Shown here one piece after another: positions 1 to 30,101 of a stretch of DNA of 31,520 nucleotides. Source of the DNA: a virus (taxonomy: Duplodnaviria; Heunggongvirae; Uroviricota; Caudoviricetes). The number at the start of each line of letters is the position of its first letter. Positions within the stretch are counted from its first letter, which is position 1. The stretch is taken from IMG/VR virus record IMGVR_UViG_2917870735_000002; one strand, 5' to 3'. Under the pieces are notes generated by a model. The model was not told the DNA's origin. It did not search any database and saw only the letters and a list, made by a program, of their open reading frames with translations. A program made the position numbers and the translations under genes.

Positions 1-129
1 CTATTTATCGGAAGGTTTATCTTGCTGCGGTTTGTTGTTGACCATATCGCACAACATCGAGAGCAGCATTAACCGTACTTTAAAGGGAGAGTGACTAAAC
101 ACGCGCATACACCTCTTGAACTCATTCAT
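1..129 (-). CDS. small hypothetical protein (42 aa)
   Basis: Not in ORF track (<60 aa). ATG at 129-127 on minus strand with AGGAGG about 5 nt upstream; stop TAG at 3-1. Translation MNEFKRCMRVFSHSPFKVRLMLLSMLCDMVNNKPQQDKPSDK. Function unknown. Confidence 0.35.
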   Translation of the reverse strand: MNEFKRCMRVFSHSPFKVRLMLLSMLCDMVNNKPQQDKPSDK

Positions 130-296: not shown

Positions 297-1337
297 CTAA
301 GCTGTCGCGACATTTTTGCGACATTTTAAGGGGTTAAGTCGCACGGCATCTTCAAGGTGGCTTGGGGCGAAATGGGCATAACGCATTGTCATAGTGATGT
401 CAGCGTGGCCGAGAATTTTTTGCAGAACCAGAATGTTTCCGCCGTTCATCATAAAGTGGCTGGCAAATGTATGGCGCAGTACATGGGTAAGCTGGCCGGA
501 GGGGAGTTCAATGCCTGCACGTTCCAGAGCAGAGCGGAAAGCGTTGTAGCAGGGCTTGGGGAACAGAGCGCCTTTTGTTTCAGGTAATTCGGACAGAAGT
601 TCATCATCAAGGGGAATTGTTCTGTTGCGCTTCCCTTTGGTTTTGACGAACGTGACTTTACCCCCGGCGATCTGGGAGCTTTTCAGCGTTGCCGCCTCAT
701 TCCACCTTGCGCCGGTAGCAAGGCAGATTTTGACAACTAATTCTAGGTACTTAACTTTACTTCGTTTGCATTCCAGTAAAAGCCGATCAATTTCTTCGGT
801 AGTGAGGAAAGCCATTTCGGTTTCATCAGTACGATACTGTCTGACGTTTTCTAGTGGGTTGGGTGCTGACCATTCACCAATCCGTTTCAGCTCGTTGAAC
901 ATAGCCAGGAAGTAAGCATGTTCAAGGTTCATAGTTTTCGGGGAAACCTTAGATACTCTGTTGGTACGGGCATAATGCCCATCCAGCCTTTTAGCGCGGT
1001 AGGCTGTGAACAACTGGGCATTAAATTCTGTGGCCAGCGGGAATCCCATGCATTCCGCCGCCCAGGTCATAGCATTTTTACGCTTTTCGCCATTGCTCAA
1101 AGCTACGCCGTGGCGTTCATACCACATGTTGATTAGGTCGCTTAGAGTACGGAGGTCTTTACCCTCGCCAAGCCAGGGGGAGTTCTCCACTTGCTGAAGC
1201 GTATAGTTCTCGTAGGCCAGGGCTTCGCCTTTTGTAGCGAATTTTTTACGAATACGCTTACCGGCTTTACCATTGCTTCGATCCACCGTGTAGAAATCGG
1301 CAATCCACTGGCCATTTGTTAATTTTCTTACAGACAT
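297..1337 (-). CDS. int: tyrosine integrase, P2 Int family
   Basis: 346 aa. N-terminal GKxGKRIRKKF arm-binding motif; catalytic region LATGARWNEA ... HVLRHTFASHF ... LGHADITMTMRYAHF (R, H-x-x-R, Y) as in P2 Int from memory. 3' end faces the left flank, as in P2 where int reads towards attP. Confidence 0.93.
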   Translation of the reverse strand: MSVRKLTNGQWIADFYTVDRSNGKAGKRIRKKFATKGEALAYENYTLQQVENSPWLGEGKDLRTLSDLINMWYERHGVALSNGEKRKNAMTWAAECMGFPLATEFNAQLFTAYRAKRLDGHYARTNRVSKVSPKTMNLEHAYFLAMFNELKRIGEWSAPNPLENVRQYRTDETEMAFLTTEEIDRLLLECKRSKVKYLELVVKICLATGARWNEAATLKSSQIAGGKVTFVKTKGKRNRTIPLDDELLSELPETKGALFPKPCYNAFRSALERAGIELPSGQLTHVLRHTFASHFMMNGGNILVLQKILGHADITMTMRYAHFAPSHLEDAVRLNPLKCRKNVATA

Positions 1338-1340
1338 AGC

Positions 1341-1910
1341 TTAGCTGTTTAAAATGCGTTGTTTTTGCTGCTGAAATTCTTCTTCAGTAAGAATGCCTTC
1401 TGCTTTCATTTCAGCCAAACGTTCAATTTTATCCATGACATCATCAAATGAAGATTTTTCGTTGGAGCTTGTAGGAGCGGTGATAACTTGTGGCTTGTCC
1501 AGACTATTCCTTGTCTCATTAACAAGGTTGGTAAAAGGAATTACGGAGGATTTTATAACGTTTTTTATGGTGTAATTCTGTCCGCTTGTTGAAATCATTA
1601 TCTCACCAAATATCAGTCCAGTCTTTCCGCCAACGCTTACAATGTTACGAAGGCTAATATCGACCTGCTTAACACCAAATATCATCCCTTTATCGAGGAA
1701 GATAACGCGTTGGTTAGTTAAAGTTATTAACCAGGTGTTGCCATCCATCATACCGCTTACTATGCCAAGCGGTTCCTCGCCGGTGTTTAAAACTTCGGGA
1801 AGATGAAAAAATTCTTTTTTTGTACCAAATGGCGTATCTGAAACAGCGGCGGACAATCGTTTCATTTCTACTTTTAATTGGTCTTTAGATGCAGTCTTGT
1901 AATCTATCAT
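1341..1910 (-). CDS. cargo protein with PH-like beta-rich core and SHOCT-like C-terminus; function unknown
   Basis: ORF 1341..1979 trimmed to ATG at 1910 (MIDYKTASK...) with AAGGA about 8 nt upstream. C-terminal IERLAEMKAEGILTEEEFQQQKQRIL resembles SHOCT; central LITLTNQRVIFLDKG...GLIFGEIMISTSG resembles bacterial PH-like domains. Visibly AT-rich versus neighbours. Lies 14 bp after cI stop and 3 bp before int start, so co-transcribed with the repressor. Confidence 0.7.
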   Translation of the reverse strand: MIDYKTASKDQLKVEMKRLSAAVSDTPFGTKKEFFHLPEVLNTGEEPLGIVSGMMDGNTWLITLTNQRVIFLDKGMIFGVKQVDISLRNIVSVGGKTGLIFGEIMISTSGQNYTIKNVIKSSVIPFTNLVNETRNSLDKPQVITAPTSSNEKSSFDDVMDKIERLAEMKAEGILTEEEFQQQKQRILNS

Positions 1911-1924
1911 TATAATTTTCCTTA

Positions 1925-2503
1925 TTATTTTATAGTTAAGATAATACGACCTAAAATTTTTATATCTTCGATAGCGCAATCAAATGCCATCCCAACGCCA
2001 CTCACTCGAACTTTGCCTACGGGGATGCGCGTAAGGGTTCTCACACTTGTTTTTCCTTCAATTTCAACTAACCAATCATCGTCGTAAACTTCGGGAAAGT
2101 GTTGATCAACAATGTACTGCATTGCGTTGTCAATCACACAGATTGGATTCTGTGGTAAAGGCTTACCAGGTAAAAAAGTAACCTTATCGAGCATTAGCAA
2201 ACCGGAATCATAGAGTTTTCCGTCCACAATCTTCTTACGCGGCAGTTTCATGATGTCTAATTCGTCATCGTTAAACTTTCTTCCTTGCCCAGTCGCAAGC
2301 CATTCCAGAGTTGCTCCCGTTTCAGCCATGCATCTAACAACGATATCTGCTGGAAAAAAATCCCTCTTGTAGCGATTAGCCAGGCTGCTACTTGCTATAT
2401 CAAGATGTTCGGCCAGGGCTAATTTTGTGTTGAAACCATACGCCTGGATGACTCTGTCCAAGACTTCTGATCCGCCATGAGAAAATTCAATTTGTAGCTT
2501 CAC
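1925..2503 (-). CDS. cI: immunity repressor, phage 186 CI-like (192 aa)
   Basis: GTG start at 2503. N-terminal helix-turn-helix-like segment (GFNTKLALAEHLDIASSSLANR). Length matches the 192-aa 186 CI as I recall. Position between int and a divergent Cox/Apl-like gene. Confidence 0.8.
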   Translation of the reverse strand: MKLQIEFSHGGSEVLDRVIQAYGFNTKLALAEHLDIASSSLANRYKRDFFPADIVVRCMAETGATLEWLATGQGRKFNDDELDIMKLPRKKIVDGKLYDSGLLMLDKVTFLPGKPLPQNPICVIDNAMQYIVDQHFPEVYDDDWLVEIEGKTSVRTLTRIPVGKVRVSGVGMAFDCAIEDIKILGRIILTIK

Positions 2504-2534
2504 GAAAATTTTTCCTTGAAATCTTTCTCAAAGC

Positions 2535-2546
2535 GAGTTTAAACTC
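2535..2546. promoter_or_regulatory. 12-bp perfect palindrome GAGTTTAAACTC in the immunity switch region (candidate operator)
   Basis: Verified base by base; 32-43 bp upstream of the cI start, between divergent cI and apl-like genes. Confidence 0.4.
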
Positions 2547-2583
2547 TGCTTTGTAGGTTTAAGTGAATATTGACAGTTACAGC

Positions 2584-2601
2584 CCTGTATTACCGTACAG
2601 G
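2584..2601. promoter_or_regulatory. dyad CCTGTA-N6-TACAGG (candidate operator) beside a TTGACA -35-like hexamer
   Basis: 6-bp perfect inverted arms with 6-bp spacer; TTGACA at 2570-2575 just upstream; about 20-40 bp before the apl-like start. Confidence 0.35.
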
Positions 2602-2622
2602 TTGACTAATGGAGTTTGCCTT

Positions 2623-2844
2623 ATGCGTCCGAGCATTACAATCATCATACCGGAACCTTACCTGCCTTTAGACGAATATTGCCGTCGTACTGGTACAAAC
2701 AAAGAAACTGCCAGAAATCTGATCGAATACGGGAAATTGCCCATTAAACCTAAGGGTAAGCAGAAGAAAGGCCTGGTTGAGGTCAACATGGCCGCGCTAA
2801 CCATTCAGGCTTTAAGTGAATGTGATATTTCACTTAACGCGTAA
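2623..2844 (+). CDS. Apl/Cox-like excisionase and transcriptional regulator (73 aa)
   Basis: ATG at 2623 with GGAG 8 nt upstream (the track ORF from 2563 begins at GTG). Small basic protein (KPKGKQKK), first gene of the rightward operon divergent from cI, as for 186 apl and P2 cox. Assigned by position and size. Confidence 0.55.
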   Translation: MRPSITIIIPEPYLPLDEYCRRTGTNKETARNLIEYGKLPIKPKGKQKKGLVEVNMAALTIQALSECDISLNA

Positions 2845-2874
2845 TTCATCCTACGGATTAGCGAGAGGCAAACA

Positions 2875-3378
2875 ATGTTTGATTACCAGATCTCTAAACA
2901 TGCGCGATTTGATGCGGCTTGCCGAGCATTTGCAATTGAGCACAATCTTGAAGATGTGGCTGTTGCCGTTGGTATAAGGCCGCAGATCCTGCGCAACAAA
3001 CTAAATCCAGCGCAACCGCACCGTTTAACATGCGATGAGCTTATATCCATTACGGATTACACCGAAGATGCACGTTTACTGGATGGGATGTTAAGCCAAA
3101 TTAACTGCCTGCCATCCGTGCCTGTGAATAATGCCACTGAAGGCAACATGCAACTGTGTGCTCTTAGCGCCACTGCGTGCGTGGGGGCGATTGCTGGGGA
3201 AGCCGTATCAACTTGCCATATGACTGCCGCTCGTCGTACTCAAATTCTGGATCGCGCCCGCGATGCAATTCGTAGCTTATCCGTGCTGGCTTATACCGTG
3301 GAAAGTCGTTTTCACTCTACGCCCGTCCTGGCCGCTGCGGTAGCGCTGGTCACAATCAATGCCACCGGCCTGATATGA
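2875..3378 (+). CDS. CII-like lysogeny-establishment regulator (167 aa)
   Basis: ATG 2875 with GAGAGG 6 nt upstream. Size and position (directly after apl-like gene) match 186 CII (about 169 aa as I recall). HTH-like segment LEDVAVAVGIRPQILRNKLN. Confidence 0.55.
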   Translation: MFDYQISKHARFDAACRAFAIEHNLEDVAVAVGIRPQILRNKLNPAQPHRLTCDELISITDYTEDARLLDGMLSQINCLPSVPVNNATEGNMQLCALSATACVGAIAGEAVSTCHMTAARRTQILDRARDAIRSLSVLAYTVESRFHSTPVLAAAVALVTINATGLI

Positions 3379-3387
3379 GGGAGCACT

Positions 3388-3561
3388 ATGAAAGCGTTTG
3401 CCACCTACCTGAAAAATGAATCACCAGCAATGCAGTTGCCAAGTGGATCAACGGGTTGGATAGAACTGCCCAACGGGCAGCGTTGGAACCCCGGTCACAT
3501 GTACAAATTCAATGGCCAGCAACAGCGCCGCCCGTGGTGGTGGCGTTTGATGGGGTTATAA
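3388..3561 (+). CDS. hypothetical early protein (57 aa, Trp-rich)
   Basis: Not in track (<60 aa). ATG 3388 with GAGGGAG 4 nt upstream; MKAFATYLKNESPAMQLPSGSTGWIELPNGQRWNPGHMYKFNGQQQRRPWWWRLMGL. Occupies the slot of 186 fil; no similarity claimed. Confidence 0.4.
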   Translation: MKAFATYLKNESPAMQLPSGSTGWIELPNGQRWNPGHMYKFNGQQQRRPWWWRLMGL

Positions 3562-3578
3562 ATCTAAAGGGGAATAAT

Positions 3579-3761
3579 ATGCGCAAGCCTAAAAAAACCA
3601 GCGGCACGATAGTGTATTTCACCATAAAGCGCCATCCAGAAAGTAGCCGCCAGGGAGATGAACGCGGGCGCGTGTGGTTTCACAATCACTCTTGTTTGGA
3701 CGTTCCGTTTTGTCGCGCGCCACGTCTTGTCCGTCGTCTGTCTTTCAACTTTGATCGTTAA
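3579..3761 (+). CDS. hypothetical early protein (60 aa, basic)
   Basis: Track ORF 3456..3761 starts at TTG; internal ATG 3579 has AAAGGGG upstream. MRKPKKTSGTIVYF... Confidence 0.4.
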   Translation: MRKPKKTSGTIVYFTIKRHPESSRQGDERGRVWFHNHSCLDVPFCRAPRLVRRLSFNFDR

Positions 3762-3790
3762 CTATCACAGCACGGTGGGAAGAGGGCGCT

Positions 3791-4207
3791 ATGGCGATTA
3801 GTCAGGAACAGCAAAAGCGTGGACTTGAGCAATTAAAACAGATCCGCCGTAAATATTTCAGCGAAAGCAGTAAGGCCGCTGAATGGTGGGACGACTTAAC
3901 ACCAGAATGGCGCGGTGTGGTTCTTCATGCTGCTGCGATTACTTCAGGTTCCAGAGTATTTAAAGCTCATTTATGCAAATGCTGCTGGCGGGAGATTTAT
4001 GAACGCCTGGGCTATCGGTACATGATTCAACTGCGTCAGGGGATATCACGGGCGCGATTAACATTTGACGGTTTTGGCAGTTTACGTGACAGCGATTTTT
4101 CGAAACGTACCGCGAATCGGCCAATAAAAAAAGCACATCCAATTTGTAGTAATAGTGGGGTGCAGATGGTGATCGCGCCTCATATCGTCCATAAGTTCCA
4201 GCAATAG
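3791..4207 (+). CDS. hypothetical early protein (138 aa)
   Basis: ATG 3791 with GGGAAGAGGG upstream; rightward early operon between CII-like gene and A. Confidence 0.5.
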   Translation: MAISQEQQKRGLEQLKQIRRKYFSESSKAAEWWDDLTPEWRGVVLHAAAITSGSRVFKAHLCKCCWREIYERLGYRYMIQLRQGISRARLTFDGFGSLRDSDFSKRTANRPIKKAHPICSNSGVQMVIAPHIVHKFQQ

Positions 4208-4218
4208 AGGAATCACTA

Positions 4219-4620
4219 ATGACCATTATTTCCGTTGAGGGTAAATCGTTGCGGGAAGAACTCGCTGTATGGGGCGTCCCTCATATCTATGTTGTATCGT
4301 TTGCAGCGAAAAACACCAGTGAAAATGGTCGCATCGCTTTGCATCCTTTCTTTTTCAATGACGCCGAACACATGATGAATCTGCGCCACTGGTTAGCTAT
4401 TAATGCCGCTTTCTGGTGCTGCGTGTACCGCGAAGCACAGAGCAAAGATGCGCAGATCGAAGCGCTGGCAGGGATTCGCGCGATTTTCTATACAGCCGGG
4501 GCGCTGGGTGTTGGCGAGATAAAATCAATAATCCAGGAGTGGTGGCAGACAACCTATGAGCTGCATCTGATTCCGGCACCGAACTATTCAGCCGCCACAG
4601 TACTAACCCATTTTCACTAA
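4219..4620 (+). CDS. hypothetical early protein (133 aa)
   Basis: ATG 4219 with AGAGGA upstream; 11 bp after previous stop. Confidence 0.5.
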   Translation: MTIISVEGKSLREELAVWGVPHIYVVSFAAKNTSENGRIALHPFFFNDAEHMMNLRHWLAINAAFWCCVYREAQSKDAQIEALAGIRAIFYTAGALGVGEIKSIIQEWWQTTYELHLIPAPNYSAATVLTHFH

Positions 4621-4687
4621 TTAACTGTCTGAATTTTTGGTCACAGTTCAAGTGGCCGGGGATTCTTTTGCCTTAAGGGAACCCAAA

Positions 4688-4921
4688 ATGTATATGACAC
4701 ATCAGGATTTACCCGCAACAAAGCTTGGTACTGATCTACTGGACATGCTTGCTAAAGCCACGCAGGAAGGTAAAGCCGCAGTTGCTGACCTGTGTTCCAT
4801 CCGCCTGGATAAGCTGGCCACTCATGCAGCAAATGAAGGTTTAAGCGCAGCGGAAATCGTTGAGTTGATCCGAGAAGAGGCCGAGGCTATTTGCAGCAAA
4901 GGCGGTGCGGCATGGCAATAA
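4688..4921 (+). CDS. hypothetical early protein (77 aa)
   Basis: Track ORF 4637..4921 starts at TTG; ATG 4688 has AAGGGAA upstream. Acidic, helical-looking. Confidence 0.45.
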   Translation: MYMTHQDLPATKLGTDLLDMLAKATQEGKAAVADLCSIRLDKLATHAANEGLSAAEIVELIREEAEAICSKGGAAWQ

Positions 4922-4967
4922 AAACACCACTAAAATGTCTTTCGCCATCGCTTCTTGAGGCCAGCAT

Positions 4968-6989
4968 ATGATGTTGGCCATAAAGGAACACTTCTATGTT
5001 GTCGATACGTGGCGGCGTGAAACTTTCGCATCTTGCATACCGGCAGACGCGACAATCACAGAACGCCGTTTGTGGGCTGTAAATCCGCAGGATTATGAAT
5101 GGAGAGTCCGGTACCTGCATGAGATACCCGACTGGTTAGCCGGGTATTTTGGCCGTCGTTACGAAAAGCTGTTTGCTGGTCGTGACGGGCGTTGTCGTGC
5201 CAATACATTCCTGCGCCAGACTATCGGCGGGAGTGTATTGCCACGTCTGCGCAAAGTGGCTGCGCGTTACTCGCTGGCCGCTGACGCTGCCGATCTTCCT
5301 TTTGGTAAGTCGCTGGCGCGCTTGCCGTCACTAGACCGTCCTGATCTTAAAAAACTGGCTGGCCAGGTATCTGGCTGGATTTCCCAGTCACTTTATGACT
5401 TCACCGAACAGTTTGACTCCAGCACTGACGACGCCAGAGAGCTGCATCGCCGCACCTTGGAATCATACCGCCATCTTTGCGCGGGTTGCCTGATGCTGAA
5501 TAACCAGCCGCCGTACTGGGCTGAACATGAGGCCAATGAAGGTCAACTGGAAATGCGTAAGGCGGAATCCGGGATACTGCGCATGATGGCGCCGGAATGG
5601 TGGTACCTACGTCTTAAACGTGCGCGTGATATGCAGCGCGAACATATGGCCATCGCGGTGGGACAGGTACAAAAAGCGGCCAGCGCTTATGTATCCCGCA
5701 AAACACTGGACGAATGGATAGACCAGAAAAAGCGGAATCTGGAGTTCTTTAAAAAGTTTGATCTGCTGAATGATGAGGGGCTGCGCATTGCACTGGACAG
5801 CATGGTGCACCGCAGCGTTGCAAATCCGGCGATCCGTCGATGTGAACTAATGGTAAGAATGCGAGGGTTTGAAGATATGGCCAATGAAGAAGGGCTGGCC
5901 GGTGAGTTTTACACCATCACCGCGCCATCACGTTTCCACGCAGTGCACAGCAAAGGTGGCTTTGTATCGCAATGGGATGGATGTACACCGCAGGATACCC
6001 AGCGCTATTTATGCGGCGTATGGGCAAAAGCACGCGCAGCGATCTCGCGTGCGGGTATTCATGTATTTGGGTTTCGGGTTGTTGAGCCACACCATGACGG
6101 GACACCGCACTGGCATATGTTGCTTTTTATGCGTCTGCAGGACGTGGACACGGTACGCGATATTCTTTGCTATCACGCCAGAATTACCGATTCTGAGGAA
6201 CTGCAATCTGAAAAGGCGCTTAAGGCACGTTTTCACGTTGAAGCTATCGATCCCGACAAAGGTTCAGCCACGGGCTACATCGCGAAATACATTTCAAAAA
6301 ATATTGATGGTTTTGCGTTGGATGGTGAGCAGGACGAAGAAACCGGCGAAAACCTGCGTGATATGGCTAAGTCCGTTTCTGCATGGGCTTCACGCTGGCG
6401 CATTCGTCAGTTTCAGCAGATTGGTGGTGCGCCGGTAACCGTCTGGCGTGAGCTGCGTCGGTTGCGGGATCTGGTGCTGACAGATCGCAGAATGGATGCG
6501 GTTCTGGCCGCTGCTGATGTTGGCGATTGGGCTGCATACACCCAAGCACAGGGTGGCGCACTGATTGCCCGCCGTGATCTGGTTGTTCGTCTGGCCTATG
6601 AAATTACGGAACAGGGCAACGAGTACGCAGAGGACGTGCAGCGCGTACAGGGGGTTTATTCTCCTTTGGTTCCTGATTCGGAAGTTTGCACCCGTCTGGT
6701 TAAGTGGCAAAAGGTTGCGAAGTTGGCCGAAGCGCCAGCGGAGGCGGGGTTTTCTGGCGGCAACGCCGCCCCTTGGAGTTCTGTCAATAACTGTACGGAG
6801 GGGGGAATCCTCAGACGGTTAAAACTGGAATTATGCAGTCGGGGTTTTAACGGTTCTAATGAAGAAATAGCCATTCTCCTACGGGGTAGTGGTTTGATGT
6901 TTGGCCAAGGGGGACTGGTTTACCGTAATGGGTGGCTTAAAGAGATTCAAAACGAGCCATTAAACGAGTTATGGCCGGGGTGGGTCTAG
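4968..6989 (+). CDS. A: replication initiation protein A (rolling-circle nicking endonuclease, P2 gpA family)
   Basis: 673 aa; ATG 4968 with GAGG upstream. His-hydrophobic-His motif (HHDGTPHWHMLLF) and tyrosine/lysine motif (TGYIAKYISKN) typical of rolling-circle initiators. Size comparable to 186 A and P2 A from memory. Confidence 0.85.
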   Translation: MMLAIKEHFYVVDTWRRETFASCIPADATITERRLWAVNPQDYEWRVRYLHEIPDWLAGYFGRRYEKLFAGRDGRCRANTFLRQTIGGSVLPRLRKVAARYSLAADAADLPFGKSLARLPSLDRPDLKKLAGQVSGWISQSLYDFTEQFDSSTDDARELHRRTLESYRHLCAGCLMLNNQPPYWAEHEANEGQLEMRKAESGILRMMAPEWWYLRLKRARDMQREHMAIAVGQVQKAASAYVSRKTLDEWIDQKKRNLEFFKKFDLLNDEGLRIALDSMVHRSVANPAIRRCELMVRMRGFEDMANEEGLAGEFYTITAPSRFHAVHSKGGFVSQWDGCTPQDTQRYLCGVWAKARAAISRAGIHVFGFRVVEPHHDGTPHWHMLLFMRLQDVDTVRDILCYHARITDSEELQSEKALKARFHVEAIDPDKGSATGYIAKYISKNIDGFALDGEQDEETGENLRDMAKSVSAWASRWRIRQFQQIGGAPVTVWRELRRLRDLVLTDRRMDAVLAAADVGDWAAYTQAQGGALIARRDLVVRLAYEITEQGNEYAEDVQRVQGVYSPLVPDSEVCTRLVKWQKVAKLAEAPAEAGFSGGNAAPWSSVNNCTEGGILRRLKLELCSRGFNGSNEEIAILLRGSGLMFGQGGLVYRNGWLKEIQNEPLNELWPGWV

Positions 6990-7003
6990 CAGGGTAAATA
7001 TGT

Positions 7004-7019
7004 GAAATGCATGCATTTC
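7004..7019. repeat. 16-bp perfect palindrome GAAATGCATGCATTTC just downstream of A
   Basis: Verified base by base; 15-30 bp after the A stop codon. Confidence 0.6.
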
Positions 7020-7074
7020 TCAGTAGATGGAAGGAAATTAAATTTCACTATTCGTGCTTTACGGTGTACGGTAT

Positions 7075-7092
7075 ACTGGATACTTATCCAGT
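7075..7092. repeat. 18-bp dyad ACTGGATA-ct-TATCCAGT
   Basis: 8-bp perfect inverted arms, 2-bp centre; preceded by TACGGT-g-TACGGT direct repeat. Confidence 0.6.
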
Positions 7093-7114
7093 CACTATTG
7101 CTTGTGGGGGCTAA

Positions 7115-7321
7115 ATGGATCTTTTGGAGGCGTCGGCACAGCTGGAACGCATTGAGTTATTAGCTAAAATTGCCCATGATTACGAAAGTAACCAGAGAGA
7201 AAAAACAATCGCTTTGGCCTGGATTGGAGAACTTGCGGAAGAGGTTCACAAAATGGTTAGAAAGGAAGGGAAAAGCCCTCATTCTGGGGGCTTTTTAGGC
7301 AGCGGGAGTCACTTTCAGTAA
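7115..7321 (+). CDS. hypothetical ORF (68 aa), doubtful
   Basis: ATG 7115 with weak GTGGGGG upstream; 3' end overlaps the convergent ogr-like gene by 27 nt. May be non-coding. Confidence 0.25.
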   Translation: MDLLEASAQLERIELLAKIAHDYESNQREKTIALAWIGELAEEVHKMVRKEGKSPHSGGFLGSGSHFQ

Positions 7322-7564
7322 ATCTAATGCTACCTGGCGCTGAGCGGGAGAAAGTGCACTCAGTATTTTTTGCACCACCGCATCACCCGTTTTAGCGCTG
7401 GGGCTGAGAGTGTGGGAAAATGTCAGATTCATAACAAATGTGTGGCCACATTCAACATCTGAACAGGCGCAGTAAATATCTGCAATTTGCCGATGCTTCC
7501 TGTTCGTTTTACGAATAACAGCCTTTGAGCCGCATTCCGGGCATTCGATTTTCAGAACTCGCAT
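7295..7564 (-). CDS. ogr: late gene transcriptional activator, Ogr/Delta zinc-finger family (89 aa)
   Basis: In-frame ATG at 7564 (MRVLKIECPECG...), GGAG about 11 nt upstream. Cys pattern CPEC ... CACSDVEC matches the C4 arrangement of P2 Ogr/186 B as I recall. About 17 aa longer at the C-terminus than the 72-aa P2/186 proteins. Confidence 0.8.
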   Translation of the reverse strand: MRVLKIECPECGSKAVIRKTNRKHRQIADIYCACSDVECGHTFVMNLTFSHTLSPSAKTGDAVVQKILSALSPAQRQVALDLLKVTPAA

Positions 7565-7614
7565 ATTCCATGCTCCAGCTGTTAAATGAAGCATGGATTT
7601 TAGCCAGTTTCGCA

Positions 7615-8676
7615 TCATGCCGCACCTTTATCTATTGATTCTATGTAACTTAAATCAAAGTTTAGGTGCAACCTTTCCGGTATTTCGGGATCGTTGTTTA
7701 CGGCCAGCATGAAACGGCGCTGGATGGGGGCAATTTCGCTTTTCTTATAAATGCGTTCAGCCTTTTCAACATCCCCCAGTCCGGCAGTGTTCTGCGGGAC
7801 AATACCGGCGAGGCCGGCAGGGAAACGGTGCGCGTTCAGAATATCCTGGGCGCTGATGTTCTTGATGTTGGCAAATTCATCCTTAGCAGAAATATCACCC
7901 ATTTCAATGAATTTGATGGCGTCGCCGTCTCCACCGGGAATGTTTACAAGGATGGTGGAGAAGTTCCCGATCCCTTTGCTGTCACGCAGCTGCTGTTCAA
8001 TTTCTTCCTCCATTTCGTCCGTCATGCTGGGATCGCGGGTATAAAGAATTCCGCCTGTGTGTGCACCGTTGTGGTAGTAGCGGCGTCGGAAAATGACCGC
8101 TTCACTGTTAAGTAACGCGGAATGCACACCGCCGATGTAGTCCGGCAGTCCGTAGATATGCTGTTGAGGGTCATACATTTTGATAAAGATAATATCTTCT
8201 TCTGGCCATATCTGCGGTTCCCCTTCCTGTAACACTACGTAGTCACCGGGCTTATCCAGGGCGTTATCTCTGACTTTGCGGCGGCGTATATACAGACCGG
8301 GTAAGGGTTCAAGTGCGATCACGTCTCCCCAGCCGTTACGAATTTTGGCAATCGCAATATCCCCAAAGGTTATATAGTCATACGCTGCCGCTTCCAGCTG
8401 GTCGTGAATAAGTCCGCCACCCAAGTAATCTGAAACAATCATGTTTTTGCGGGCGTGAATGATGCCGCCGTGCTGACCGTTAAGATTAATCAGCTGTGCG
8501 AGTGCCAGCCGGTCAATCGGCTGGGTGAAGTGATCGGCGGCATTGTCGTACCAGATATCACGGTAATCTGTGCCGGTAGTCAGAACCGGTTCAGGTTTGC
8601 CGAATGTGATAATGCTCATCTTTTTTGATTTGTCGCCGCGCTGGTCGCGCTTAACAAAGCGTTTCTTTTTACTCAT
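7615..8676 (-). CDS. Q: portal protein (P2 gpQ family)
   Basis: 353 aa; conserved blocks (GLPDYIG...LNSEAVIFRRRYYHNGAHTGGILY; DILNAHRFPAGLAG...GDVEKAE) match P2 Q from memory. Start ATG overlaps terminase stop (ATGA). Confidence 0.92.
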   Translation of the reverse strand: MSKKKRFVKRDQRGDKSKKMSIITFGKPEPVLTTGTDYRDIWYDNAADHFTQPIDRLALAQLINLNGQHGGIIHARKNMIVSDYLGGGLIHDQLEAAAYDYITFGDIAIAKIRNGWGDVIALEPLPGLYIRRRKVRDNALDKPGDYVVLQEGEPQIWPEEDIIFIKMYDPQQHIYGLPDYIGGVHSALLNSEAVIFRRRYYHNGAHTGGILYTRDPSMTDEMEEEIEQQLRDSKGIGNFSTILVNIPGGDGDAIKFIEMGDISAKDEFANIKNISAQDILNAHRFPAGLAGIVPQNTAGLGDVEKAERIYKKSEIAPIQRRFMLAVNNDPEIPERLHLNFDLSYIESIDKGAA

Positions 8677-27316: not shown

Positions 27317-27913
27317 TCAGTTGTTGTGTAGTTCAAGATAGTTAGAGGTGGAGTGCGTATCAAGCGGTAGTAGTTGTGCGGCTCTGCGGGTTATAAAGAC
27401 ACTATTGGCAGGAATGTTTCGGTTAACGAATGACATAGCACCAATTGTCACATTATCACCAATGGTCAGATCATCACCGATGATGCATGAATTTGCGCCA
27501 ATCTCGACATTGTCTCCGATCCTGATGGCTTTGATTCCTTCAACTGTTTTTAATCCAATCGTTGTGTTTTGTCGGATACGAACATTTTTTCCAATCACAG
27601 CCTGGGGACAAATGACTATTCCAACGAAGTGATAAATTTTGAATTTTTCCCCGATCTGTGCCCCCAATCCAATATCAGTATTGTATTTTGAAACAAGTCT
27701 CCGGTGGATTCTTCGTGCCCACTTAATACTTGATTTCCCTCCCTGACAGTAAAGGCAATTCGCTATCCTCCACCAACACATGAATCTGTGTCCGGGTTGT
27801 CTCCAGCAACGTAGTATGATTCTCCTCCAGGAGAAATTTTTACTGCTGTGCAGTATGTCCGCGCACAACAACTTCTTCATATCCTCATAATGCGACTTTT
27901 TGTTGTTGCTCAT
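27317..27913 (-). CDS. hexapeptide-repeat acetyltransferase, serine acetyltransferase (CysE)/WcaB-like
   Basis: 198 aa; ATG 27913 with AGGGAGA upstream. Helical N-terminus (HRFMCWWRIANCLY) then left-handed beta-helix repeats (DIGLGAQIGEKFKIYHFVGIVICPQAVIGKNVRIRQNTTIG ... IGDNVEIGANSCIIGDDLTIGDNVTIGAMSFV) paralleling the CysE core pattern. AT-rich; convergent with the last tail gene. Confidence 0.75.
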   Translation of the reverse strand: MSNNKKSHYEDMKKLLCADILHSSKNFSWRRIILRCWRQPGHRFMCWWRIANCLYCQGGKSSIKWARRIHRRLVSKYNTDIGLGAQIGEKFKIYHFVGIVICPQAVIGKNVRIRQNTTIGLKTVEGIKAIRIGDNVEIGANSCIIGDDLTIGDNVTIGAMSFVNRNIPANSVFITRRAAQLLPLDTHSTSNYLELHNN

Positions 27914-29474: not shown

Positions 29475-30101
29475 TTACAGCACTGTTTCTGCGGAACGGG
29501 ACGCTTCTTTTGTCGCATTGCCAGTGATAAAAGGCTGCTTTTCCTGATATTCCGACTGCGGTAGTTTGGATGTATACACTGGCGTGATCTTGTTTTTATA
29601 AACGGTGTCACTGGGGATGTTCTGAAGCACCAGTGAATGCGCACCAATGGTGACATTGTTTCCGATTGTAATCTTGCCGCCCAGAATGGACGAGTTACAG
29701 CCAATATCAACATGATCACCAATGATTATCATTGCGTCGACACTGTCGGTGCGTAACCCTATGGTGATGCCTTGCTTCAGGTCGGCGAAATCACCAATCA
29801 CGCAATTGTCAGTAATGACAATACCGTTCAAATGAGCAATGTTTAACCCCTTGCCGATTTTGCACGACAGAGAAATATCAACGCTGTGCCGGTACTTGAG
29901 GCGGTTTTCAATTCTGCGGGCAATGCGCTTTTTGAACTTACTATTCTGGCCATAGAGCCATGAAGCAATACGCCACCAGAACAGGAAGTGCTTCTTCTGG
30001 TTGCGTCGGGTACGAAGTAACGCTTTACGCCATGAAAAGGCTTTGTCATGGCCAATGACTTCAAGGCGGATACATTCTTTACGATGGTCGTAGGAAGTCA
30101 T
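29475..30101 (-). CDS. hexapeptide-repeat acetyltransferase, CysE/WcaB-like (divergent paralog of 27317..27913)
   Basis: 208 aa; shares N-terminal motif (FSWR..., WWRIASWLY) and beta-helix repeats (IGDFADLKQGITIGL ... IGDHVDIGCNSSILGGKITIGNNVTIGAHSLV) with the other acetyltransferase. Confidence 0.75.
   Translation of the reverse strand: MTSYDHRKECIRLEVIGHDKAFSWRKALLRTRRNQKKHFLFWWRIASWLYGQNSKFKKRIARRIENRLKYRHSVDISLSCKIGKGLNIAHLNGIVITDNCVIGDFADLKQGITIGLRTDSVDAMIIIGDHVDIGCNSSILGGKITIGNNVTIGAHSLVLQNIPSDTVYKNKITPVYTSKLPQSEYQEKQPFITGNATKEASRSAETVL

Follow-up and report, generated by a model that had tools for sequence, protein, structure and literature searches.

Five conserved small genes, two of them of the Fil and DUF2732 families, in the early operon of a 186-like P2-type prophage

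Introduction

The early operons of temperate phages are known as a source of small proteins directed at the host. In phage 186, the early promoter pR lies between cI and apl, and is followed by apl, cII, fil, small genes, a terminator, a DUF2732 gene (orf80) and finally the replication gene A. According to the annotations of the 186 record, overexpression of fil "blocks cell division" (the sole source used here for the mechanism of Fil), the terminator tR1 is "anti-terminated during early lytic" development, and orf80 is "not essential". The early operon of P2 is organized in a related manner and consists of cox, orf78, B, a terminator, orf80-83 and A. A literature search on Fil, Dhr, DUF2732, DUF2724 and the early ORFs of P2 returned nothing relevant.

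The present analysis deals with a block of small genes in IMG/VR record IMGVR_UViG_2917870735_000002, the whole 31,520-nucleotide stretch of which is referred to as the window. The block occupies positions 3388-4921 of the + strand, with the CII gene on one side and the replication gene A on the other, and comprises five co-directional ORFs designated O1 to O5. An earlier note had placed it in the region where 186 carries fil; the location in a 186-type early operon, between CII and A, was recognized properly, but the block itself contains fil.

The gene order of the window thus resembles that of 186, with several differences. Phage 186 possesses dhr, whereas the window has O2, O3 and O4 in its place and no Dhr homologue, bearing in mind that Dhr has no Pfam family to compare against. 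The 186 genes orf81-84 (DksA-like, exonuclease, DUF5405 and PAPS reductase) are absent from the window, where the DUF2732 gene is directly followed by A. Like the window, P2 carries small non-structural ORFs, a terminator and a DUF2732 gene (orf80), all located upstream of A. However, P2 lacks the CII gene found in the window, its B protein has no counterpart there (hhalign probability <1%), and its orf78, which is devoid of any Pfam match, shares with Fil and O1 a 12-residue N-terminal motif only. The closest resemblance occurs with the Quadragintavirus phages ESSI2_ev015 and ev040 and related enterobacterial prophages, about 91% identical in DNA over the region, in which Fil, O3, O4, the terminator and DUF2732 follow each other in the order of the window. 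These relatives differ from the window by the absence of O2 and by the presence, between DUF2732 and A, of an exonuclease, a DUF3850 gene and a Dam methylase which the window does not contain.

Organization of the Early Operon and Type of Prophage

The features of the region are the following:

2516-2545, + strand: candidate pR-like early promoter (TTGAAA-18-TAAACT), called solely by its match to the consensus
2623-2844, + strand: Apl/Cox-like excisionase-repressor, first gene of the early operon (phrog_575, E 2.9e-27)
2875-3378, + strand: CII (CP76) regulator (Pfam Phage_CP76, 148.8 bits)
3388-3561, + strand: O1, short-form Fil-family protein of 57 aa (PF10893, phrog_816)
3579-3761, + strand: O2, very basic protein of 60 aa, pI 11.2 (phrog_17199, E 3.6e-31)
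3791-4207, + strand: O3, basic helical protein of 138 aa, pI 10.0 (phrog_33841)
4219-4620, + strand: O4, protein of 133 aa (phrog_3935)
4631-4675, + strand: intrinsic-terminator-like hairpin with its stem at 4631-4665, followed by TTTTGCC (terminator scan and homology to 186 tR1)
4688-4921, + strand: O5, acidic DUF2732 protein of 77 aa, pI 4.8 (PF10809, phrog_128)
4968-6989, + strand: replication initiator A (Pfam Phage_GPA, 349 bits)

The prophage was typed by the Pfam and PHROG families of its CI, Apl/Cox, CII, A, Ogr, portal and terminase proteins, and its identity to Escherichia phage ESSI2_ev015 amounts to 91.6%. By these criteria, the host element is a 186-like P2-type prophage (Peduoviridae, Quadragintavirus-related) of an Escherichia species. 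A promoter scan of positions 2400-7700 detected a single sigma-70-like site, the candidate at 2516-2545, and none inside the O1-O5 block; its location matches that of pR in 186.

All five ORFs described previously, of 57-138 aa and each with its own ribosome-binding site, were recovered on the + strand over 3388-4921. Shine-Dalgarno-like purine-rich motifs (GGGAG, GGGGA, GAGGG, AGAGGA and AAGGGA, from O1 to O5) occur 4-7 nt upstream of the start codons, and the intergenic spacers of the block measure 9-29 nt with a single exception of 67 nt. The earlier observation that two of these genes had been missed by the mechanical ORF track was sound in spirit but too low in number, three of the five being affected: O1 falls below 60 aa, whereas O2 and O5 are masked by TTG codons. 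The mechanical ORF of O2 begins at TTG 3456 and that of O5 at TTG 4637, the real starts being ATG 3579 and ATG 4688, respectively. For O2, the TTG start was rejected on account of a 106-nt overlap with O1 and of a homology that begins at the ribosome-binding site preceding ATG 3579. Antisense ORFs of 83-88 aa lying within O3-O4 were also discarded, as they are not conserved in relatives. Each of the five proteins matches a PHROG family, with E values of about 1e-21 to 1e-48, and, as judged by sequence comparison with relatives (pairwise Nei-Gojobori dN/dS), O1-O5 are real, conserved genes that are all under purifying selection.

Pfam matches among the five proteins are limited to Fil and DUF2732, and the PHROG matches other than Fil all belong to families of "unknown function". 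NCBIfam and PADLOC scans of the five proteins gave zero matches, PDB sequence searches (profiles for O3 and O4, sequences for O1, O2 and O5) returned nothing below E 0.09, Foldseek against BFVD found nothing with E <= 0.001, and no Rfam family reached the gathering score over the whole window. None of the five proteins showed a significant match to the anti-restriction or Acr families of Pfam and PHROGs (Ral, Ocr, ArdA, Acr and others).

O1, a Short-Form Member of the Fil Family

The genes of the block had been regarded as unrecognizable by sequence, which proved wrong for two of them, O1 (Fil, 42.6 bits) and O5 (DUF2732, 46.5 bits). The O1 score against Pfam PF10893 (Phage_186_Fil; cut-off 25, E 4.8e-11) corresponds to profile positions 1-34 of 56, and O1 also matches phrog_816, annotated as "cell division inhibitor", over residues 3-56 (E 8.3e-9). 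Residues 3-35 align by BLASTP with residues 7-36 of 186 Fil at 39% identity, and in E. coli RefSeq genomes the genes underlying matches of 84-88% identity bear the name "phage filamentation protein Fil family protein". The position of the gene is equally conserved, with a start codon located 9 nt past the cII stop and an order, directly after cII, which recurs in 186 and in 14 related loci. These matches indicate that O1 belongs to the Fil family; its dN/dS is 0.04-0.06.

In contrast to 186 Fil, a protein of 75 aa with a hydrophobic C-terminal tail, the 57-aa O1 (pI 10.5) lacks this tail and ends with a basic, Trp-rich C-terminus. Because the Pfam match is confined to the N-terminal part and the C-termini differ, the activity of O1 may depart from that of 186 Fil. 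By homology, O1 produced in quantity would block the division of the host cell, and such a Fil-type arrest would be the sole host-directed role in the block for which homology can be invoked.

O2, an Optional Cassette Shared by Unrelated Phages

Relative to phage ESSI2_ev015, O2 forms a clean insertion of approximately 226 bp between fil and O3. Among the relatives that possess the CII-Fil-O3-O4-DUF2732 arrangement, it is restricted to the window lineage and to prophages of Citrobacter farmeri. The O2 family is rare, with 5 clusters only in 5.8 billion proteins, but its members reside in very distinct phages. In the P22-like phages L, ST64T and ST160, homologues occupy the interval that separates nutL from gene 24, and others are present in Erwinia phage 59, in the Morganella T4-like phage vB_Mm5 and in Murrayvirus ST231. 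The P22-like copies represent one closely related set, and the spread of O2 therefore rests on about five independent contexts. The ORF of phages L, ST64T and ST160 shares 68-70% protein identity with O2, has the same length, is preceded by a ribosome-binding site only, and likewise comes first in an early transcript; it differs by its location in a lambdoid pL leader among unrelated neighbours, as opposed to the P2-like pR operon of the window. No similarity links O2 to Dhr or to P2 orf78 in BLASTP and profile comparisons (probability <1% for Dhr).

Gene calls for a public prophage identical to the present one leave O2 unannotated, as do the records of ST64T, L and ST160. This omission and the rarity of the family could suggest that the intergenic insertion holds an ORF only by chance, or that it is a non-coding RNA element. 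Such a reading is very improbable and already close to refuted by the comparison of the copies: the frame is intact in all of them, similarity between the P2-like and lambdoid prophage copies starts at the ribosome-binding site and stops at the stop codon, with pN (0.19-0.21) well under pS (0.80-0.83), and eight diverged homologues retain in their alignment the invariant core KRRPE..R.GDERGRVW[FY]H...L..F.RAP. Moreover, the O2 region has no match in Rfam.

O2 would behave as a separately mobile cassette made of a ribosome-binding site and a coding sequence, found elsewhere at the start of the pL transcript in P22-like phages and also in a virulent T4-like phage. Its occurrence in unrelated types of phages argues for a target common to enterobacterial hosts rather than for a phage-specific partner.

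The neighbourhood of O2 could also be taken to mean that the protein supports adjoining unstable early regulators (N/gp24, or CII in the window), for example by a protease or nuclease inhibition similar to that of lambda CIII. Whichever immunity repressor is present, a gp24-type N gene follows the homologue after 23 nt in 14 of 16 IMG/VR loci. The copy of Erwinia phage 59 is flanked by an N-like gene on each side, and in the window O2 lies two genes after cII. However, the 14 gp24-linked loci carry one closely related allele and effectively count as one event, while P22 possesses gene 24 despite the absence of an O2 homologue. Since, in addition, the 5-kb stretches examined around the T4-like and Murrayvirus copies contain no annotated N or CII gene, and O2 resembles neither CIII nor any protease inhibitor in Pfam, this function appears improbable.

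O3 and O4, a Conserved Adjacent Pair

The genes O3 and O4 are conserved side by side in P2-like prophages from about ten genera of enterobacteria. The order CII-Fil-O3-O4-DUF2732 was found in 14 loci distributed among Kluyvera, Erwinia, Enterobacter, Buttiauxella, Raoultella, Franconibacter, Kosakonia, Siccibacter, Citrobacter and an Escherichia phage. Values of dN/dS are 0.06-0.08 for O3 and 0.16-0.17 for O4. In relatives the O3 stop codon overlaps the O4 start codon, which suggests coupled translation. The predicted fold of O4 consists of a beta-alpha-alpha-beta-beta unit followed by a three-helix bundle.

Neither protein matches a functionally described family, a solved structure or a predicted viral fold in Pfam, PHROGs, PDB and BFVD. 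With the O4 profile, HMMER retrieved only 33 clusters when 1.84 billion representatives were searched exhaustively, and the ten of these that were scanned contain no Pfam domain. Profile comparisons of O3 and O4 with the Apl and CII proteins of the window, and with each other, remained below 1% probability. The Cys residues of O3 were considered as a zinc site and dropped, the Cys columns being variable.

Co-inherited with CII, Fil and DUF2732, O3-O4 fill the slot held by dhr in 186 and by B in P2. Their identification with the DnaB-interacting B protein of P2 (hhalign probability 0.1-0.2%) or with 186 Dhr (<1%) was rejected, and the pair appears unrelated to both. Judged by position, their role would be either host-directed or accessory to replication or regulation.

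The second of these roles could take the form of a P2 B-like helper for A-dependent rolling-circle replication, of a factor allowing read-through of tR1, or of a Dhr-like inhibitor of host replication. It is consistent with the location of the pair directly upstream of the terminator-DUF2732 junction, in the slot of B and dhr, with its strict association to a single CII/A lineage and with the suggested translational coupling. The basic and helical character of O3 and the N-terminal unit of O4, which in the prediction recalls winged-helix DNA binders, would also agree with it, and the 186 record describes terminators that are anti-terminated by a mechanism it does not state. Even so, a service of O3-O4 to phage replication or regulation seems to us rather unlikely.

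Somewhat less probable still is an anti-defence function (anti-restriction, anti-CRISPR or inhibition of abortive infection) of O2, O3 and/or O4, which would be expressed first after induction or infection; this is the reading preferred in the earlier note. All three are small proteins with folds devoid of known matches, encoded promoter-proximally in the early operon, ahead of the terminator. O2 is, moreover, an optional cassette exchanged among P2-like, P22-like and T4-like phages, and its homologue in P22-like phages lies two genes upstream of the restriction-alleviation gene ral. However, O2-O4 show no similarity to the anti-restriction or Acr families of Pfam and PHROGs, and no defence-system partner was identified for them. 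O3 and O4 are furthermore stably co-inherited over about ten genera with dN/dS values of 0.06-0.17, whereas counter-defence genes are typically patchy and fast-evolving. The comparison with Fil, Dhr and anti-restriction or anti-CRISPR proteins that had been advocated for the block was thus fruitful for Fil (O1) but gave no match to the others in Pfam, PHROGs or hhalign. For O2, O3 and O4, no function can be assigned from sequence, profile or structure searches.

The tR1-Like Terminator and O5

The exceptional 67-nt spacer upstream of O5 contains a tR1-like hairpin followed by a T-tract. The hairpin folds with an energy of -18.1 kcal/mol, a value which is not unusual (z only -1.1), and the terminator is called by homology. 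Upon alignment, GCCGGGGATTCTTTTGCC is common to the hairpin of the window and to the annotated tR1 of 186, and GCCGGG(G/C)ATTCTTTTGCC represents the terminator sequence shared by both. A weaker match links it to the putative terminator of P2, at the equivalent position upstream of the DUF2732 gene. The hairpin at 4631-4665 is homologous to 186 tR1 in both sequence and position, termination itself being predicted.

O5, located immediately downstream of this element and upstream of the replication genes, matches PF10809 (DUF2732) well above the cut-off of 25 bits and phrog_128 with an E value of 9e-21. It is 40% identical to 186 orf80 over 53 residues and displays a dN/dS of 0.14-0.17. By family and position, O5 is the counterpart of orf80 from both 186 and P2. 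The terminator would separate O1-O4, on the promoter side, from O5 and A, which lie distal to it.

Proposed Role of the Block

Taken together, O1-O5 are best regarded as accessory, probably non-essential genes of a pR-type early lytic operon, for which a host-directed role is the most likely one; we consider this reading likely, short of firmly established. Upon lifting of the repression by CI, the block would be transcribed from the candidate promoter upstream of apl. O1-O4 would be made immediately, along with Apl and CII, while O5 and gene A, lying past the terminator, would need read-through. We infer this joint expression and its control from the layout of the operon, and the biochemical activities of the proteins would follow from homology or position.

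A bolder proposal, which we advance as tentative, would make O2 an overlooked, horizontally mobile immediate-early effector. Its target would be conserved among enterobacteria, for example a factor that binds nucleic acids, a protease or a component of immunity, and P2-like, P22-like, lambdoid and T4-like phages would all have acquired it at the head of an early transcript. O3-O4, for their part, could form a new module of two proteins, active in host shutoff or replication, which in a single P2-like lineage stands in for Dhr or B.

Significance

The block is largely ordinary: it represents a typical accessory set of an early operon and no novel type of system. The gain is one of annotation, in that the reading of two genes is corrected (Fil and DUF2732) and O3-O4 are defined as a conserved, structurally unmatched pair. 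The tR1-DUF2732 junction is shown to be a landmark conserved in P2, in 186 and in the lineage of the window. Finally, attention is drawn to a 60-aa gene, O2, which the public annotations of the model phages L, ST64T and ST160, like that of an identical prophage, fail to include. As L and ST64T are Salmonella phages amenable to experiment, for which P22 provides a natural comparator devoid of O2, the function of the O2 family is directly testable.

Organization of the left part of the window

The left part of the window is the end of a P2/186-type prophage that carries its regulatory and replication genes, with five small reading frames (O1-O5) between the CII gene and gene A:

1-129, minus strand, mntS
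297-1337, minus strand, integrase
1341-1910, minus strand, bPH_3+SHOCT gene (189 aa; phrog_2700 match), between int and cI
1925-2503, minus strand, 186-type CI repressor
2623-2844, plus strand, Apl/Cox-like gene
2875-3378, plus strand, CII/CP76 gene
3388-3561, plus strand, O1 (57 aa)
3579-3761, plus strand, O2 (60 aa)
3791-4207, plus strand, O3 (138 aa)
4219-4620, plus strand, O4 (133 aa)
4688-4921, plus strand, O5 (77 aa)
4968-6989, plus strand, replication gene A
after A, Ogr/Delta zinc-finger gene, then portal and terminase

Among named phages, Escherichia phage ESSI2_ev015 (Peduoviridae, Quadragintavirus; hereafter ev015) comes closest, with 91.6% identity across 87% of 2500-7000, and a contig of the public Escherichia sp. 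genome GCA_004745215.1 matches the block itself (3388-4921) at 100% identity. The integration site is adjoined by mntS (1-129, minus strand; 130-296), with a sulfatase gene further out in related contigs, and Citrobacter farmeri and Escherichia sp. genomes harbor a prophage at the same mntS site. Downstream of A, a 68-aa frame without family (7115-7321, plus strand) converges on the Ogr/Delta gene (7295-7618, minus strand) and overlaps it at its 3' end; the Ogr/Delta gene is called as 107 or 89 aa depending on the genome.

The gene at 1341-1910 (minus strand) occupies a position in the lysogenic operon and belongs to a family, phrog_2700, of unknown function; its protein gave no match in PADLOC. 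In ev015 and the C. farmeri prophage int directly abuts cI without this gene, which is therefore inserted cargo, predicted to be expressed in the lysogen, with a possible role in exclusion or conversion. Past the tail genes, at the opposite end of the window, two hexapeptide-repeat acyltransferase-like frames (27317-27913 and 29475-30101, both minus strand), surrounded by frames devoid of any Pfam match, may represent lysogenic-conversion cargo or host DNA; a "serine acetyltransferase" adjoins int in ev015.

Coding status of the five reading frames

The earlier note described five genes at 3388-4921, each with its own ribosome-binding site, and this description is borne out: a Shine-Dalgarno-like motif occurs 4-7 nt upstream of every start, and all five frames match a PHROG family (phrog_17199, phrog_33841 and phrog_3935 for O2, O3 and O4, respectively). 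A mechanical ORF list began O2 at TTG 3456 and O5 at TTG 4637, both upstream of the ATG; the ATG starts are preferred because of the Shine-Dalgarno-like motifs and the point where homology begins. Against the ev015 and C. farmeri copies, dN/dS reaches 0.04-0.06 for O1, 0.06-0.08 for O3, 0.16-0.17 for O4 and 0.14-0.17 for O5, while the comparison of O2 with its lambdoid copy gives pN 0.19 and pS 0.80, the synonymous sites being saturated. Purifying selection thus acts on all five.

Transcriptional frame

From the CII gene through O1-O5 to A, the spacers measure 9, 17, 29, 11, 67 and 46 nt. The sole long one, between O4 and O5, contains a hairpin (4631-4665) followed by TTTTGCC. Its folding energy is unremarkable on its own (z -1.1); its sequence aligns with tR1, the annotated early-operon terminator of phage 186, and more loosely with a putative P2 terminator, and all three lie just upstream of a DUF2732 gene. 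The 186 record describes anti-termination at tR1 in early lytic development. No promoter-like site was found within the block, the single one in 2400-7700 being located at 2516-2545, at the position of 186 pR. O1-O4 would be expressed together with apl and cII, and expression of O5 and A would need read-through of the terminator-like hairpin.

O1 and O5 belong to known families

The earlier note stated that none of the five can be recognized by sequence. This fails for two of them, since O1 (Phage_186_Fil, 42.6 bits) and O5 (DUF2732, 46.5 bits) both exceed their Pfam threshold of 25. O1 also matches the PHROG "cell division inhibitor", shares 39% identity with residues 7-36 of 186 Fil, and matches at 84-88% identity E. 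coli RefSeq genes named "phage filamentation protein Fil family protein". Instead of the block standing in the position of 186 fil, fil itself is thus found inside it. The Fil match spans the N-terminal two thirds of O1. 186 Fil ends in a hydrophobic tail, which the shorter C-terminus of O1 (RRPWWWRLMGL) does not resemble; longer forms of 71 aa occur in relatives. O5 is 40% identical to 186 orf80, and P2 orf80 belongs to the same DUF2732 family.

The interval between the DUF2732 gene and A (4921-4968) is minimal in the window, A following directly. Most relatives (among comparison loci L001, L004, L005 and L008-L019) carry here mixed sets of 3'-5' exonuclease, DUF3850, Dam methylase and PAPS reductase genes, none of which occurs in the window, and the interval is a second variable slot of the same operon.

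O3 and O4, a conserved pair

O3 and O4 each possess roughly 80-100 homologue clusters, all annotated "hypothetical" and all from Enterobacterales. Fourteen loci, spread over about ten genera, keep the order CII-Fil-O3-O4-DUF2732, and relatives have an O3 stop that overlaps with the start of O4. An exhaustive profile search with O4 (1.84 billion representatives) yielded only 33 clusters, with no Pfam domain in the 10 scanned. Profile comparisons of O3 and O4 with P2 B, 186 Dhr and the window's own Apl and CII were all negative. The pair therefore sits where 186 has dhr and P2 has B, and is related to neither; a function would be suggested by gene position. One Salmonella enterica protein (P0180, 96 aa) is a chimera of the N-terminal 40 residues of Fil fused to the middle of O4 (RHWLAINAAFWCCVYREAES), implying a deletion variant without O3 and the start of O4.

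O2, a rare mobile gene

O2, strongly basic (pI 11.2), stands out as the most unusual member of the block. It is rare, with only 5 clusters among 5.8 billion proteins; IMG/VR contains 16 loci. Among P2-like prophages it is restricted to the lineage of the window and C. farmeri, where about 226 bp are cleanly inserted between the fil stop and the O3 ribosome-binding site. P22-like prophages and phages L, ST64T and ST160 possess a 68-70% identical copy, which follows pL and the annotated nutL boxA/boxB and precedes gene 24 (N analogue) by 23 nt; at the DNA level the P2-like and lambdoid copies resemble each other only in the ribosome-binding site and coding sequence. P22 lacks the frame between nutL and gene 24, the distance being 157 nt vs about 345 nt in phage L. 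More distant relatives (36-49% aligned identity) occur in Erwinia phage 59, where two N-like genes flank it, the T4-like Morganella phage vB_Mm5 and Murrayvirus ST231.

The P22-like copy is left without annotation in most of those records, e.g., ST64T (NC_004348 12359-12538; L020 1801-1980), phage L (X94331; L025 about 1621-1800) and ST160. The gene calls of GCA_004745215.1 (L027 3843-4073, identical to window 3561-3791) also omit O2, its frame being intact, and three sister genomes show a single substitution (P20L).

Since O2 enters the earliest transcripts of unrelated phages as a bare unit of ribosome-binding site and coding sequence, its most likely target would be the host or something that these hosts share. 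Its association with N genes is suggestive, and is based on essentially two independent events. As for the anti-defence role proposed for these small genes, circumstantial indications hint weakly at it, mainly for O2.

Relationship to phage 186

The analysis of the five frames found no support for a categorically new system. The block is a variant of the 186 accessory early region and would work in the same way; the two have in common the operon frame, the Fil and DUF2732 families and the terminator; unlike 186, the block lacks Dhr and possesses instead three lineage-specific or mobile genes (O2, O3 and O4). The annotation of O1 and O5 is thereby corrected, O3-O4 are recognized as a conserved pair, and O2 as a member of an under-annotated family of small genes, which can be tested directly by comparing phage L or ST64T with P22.
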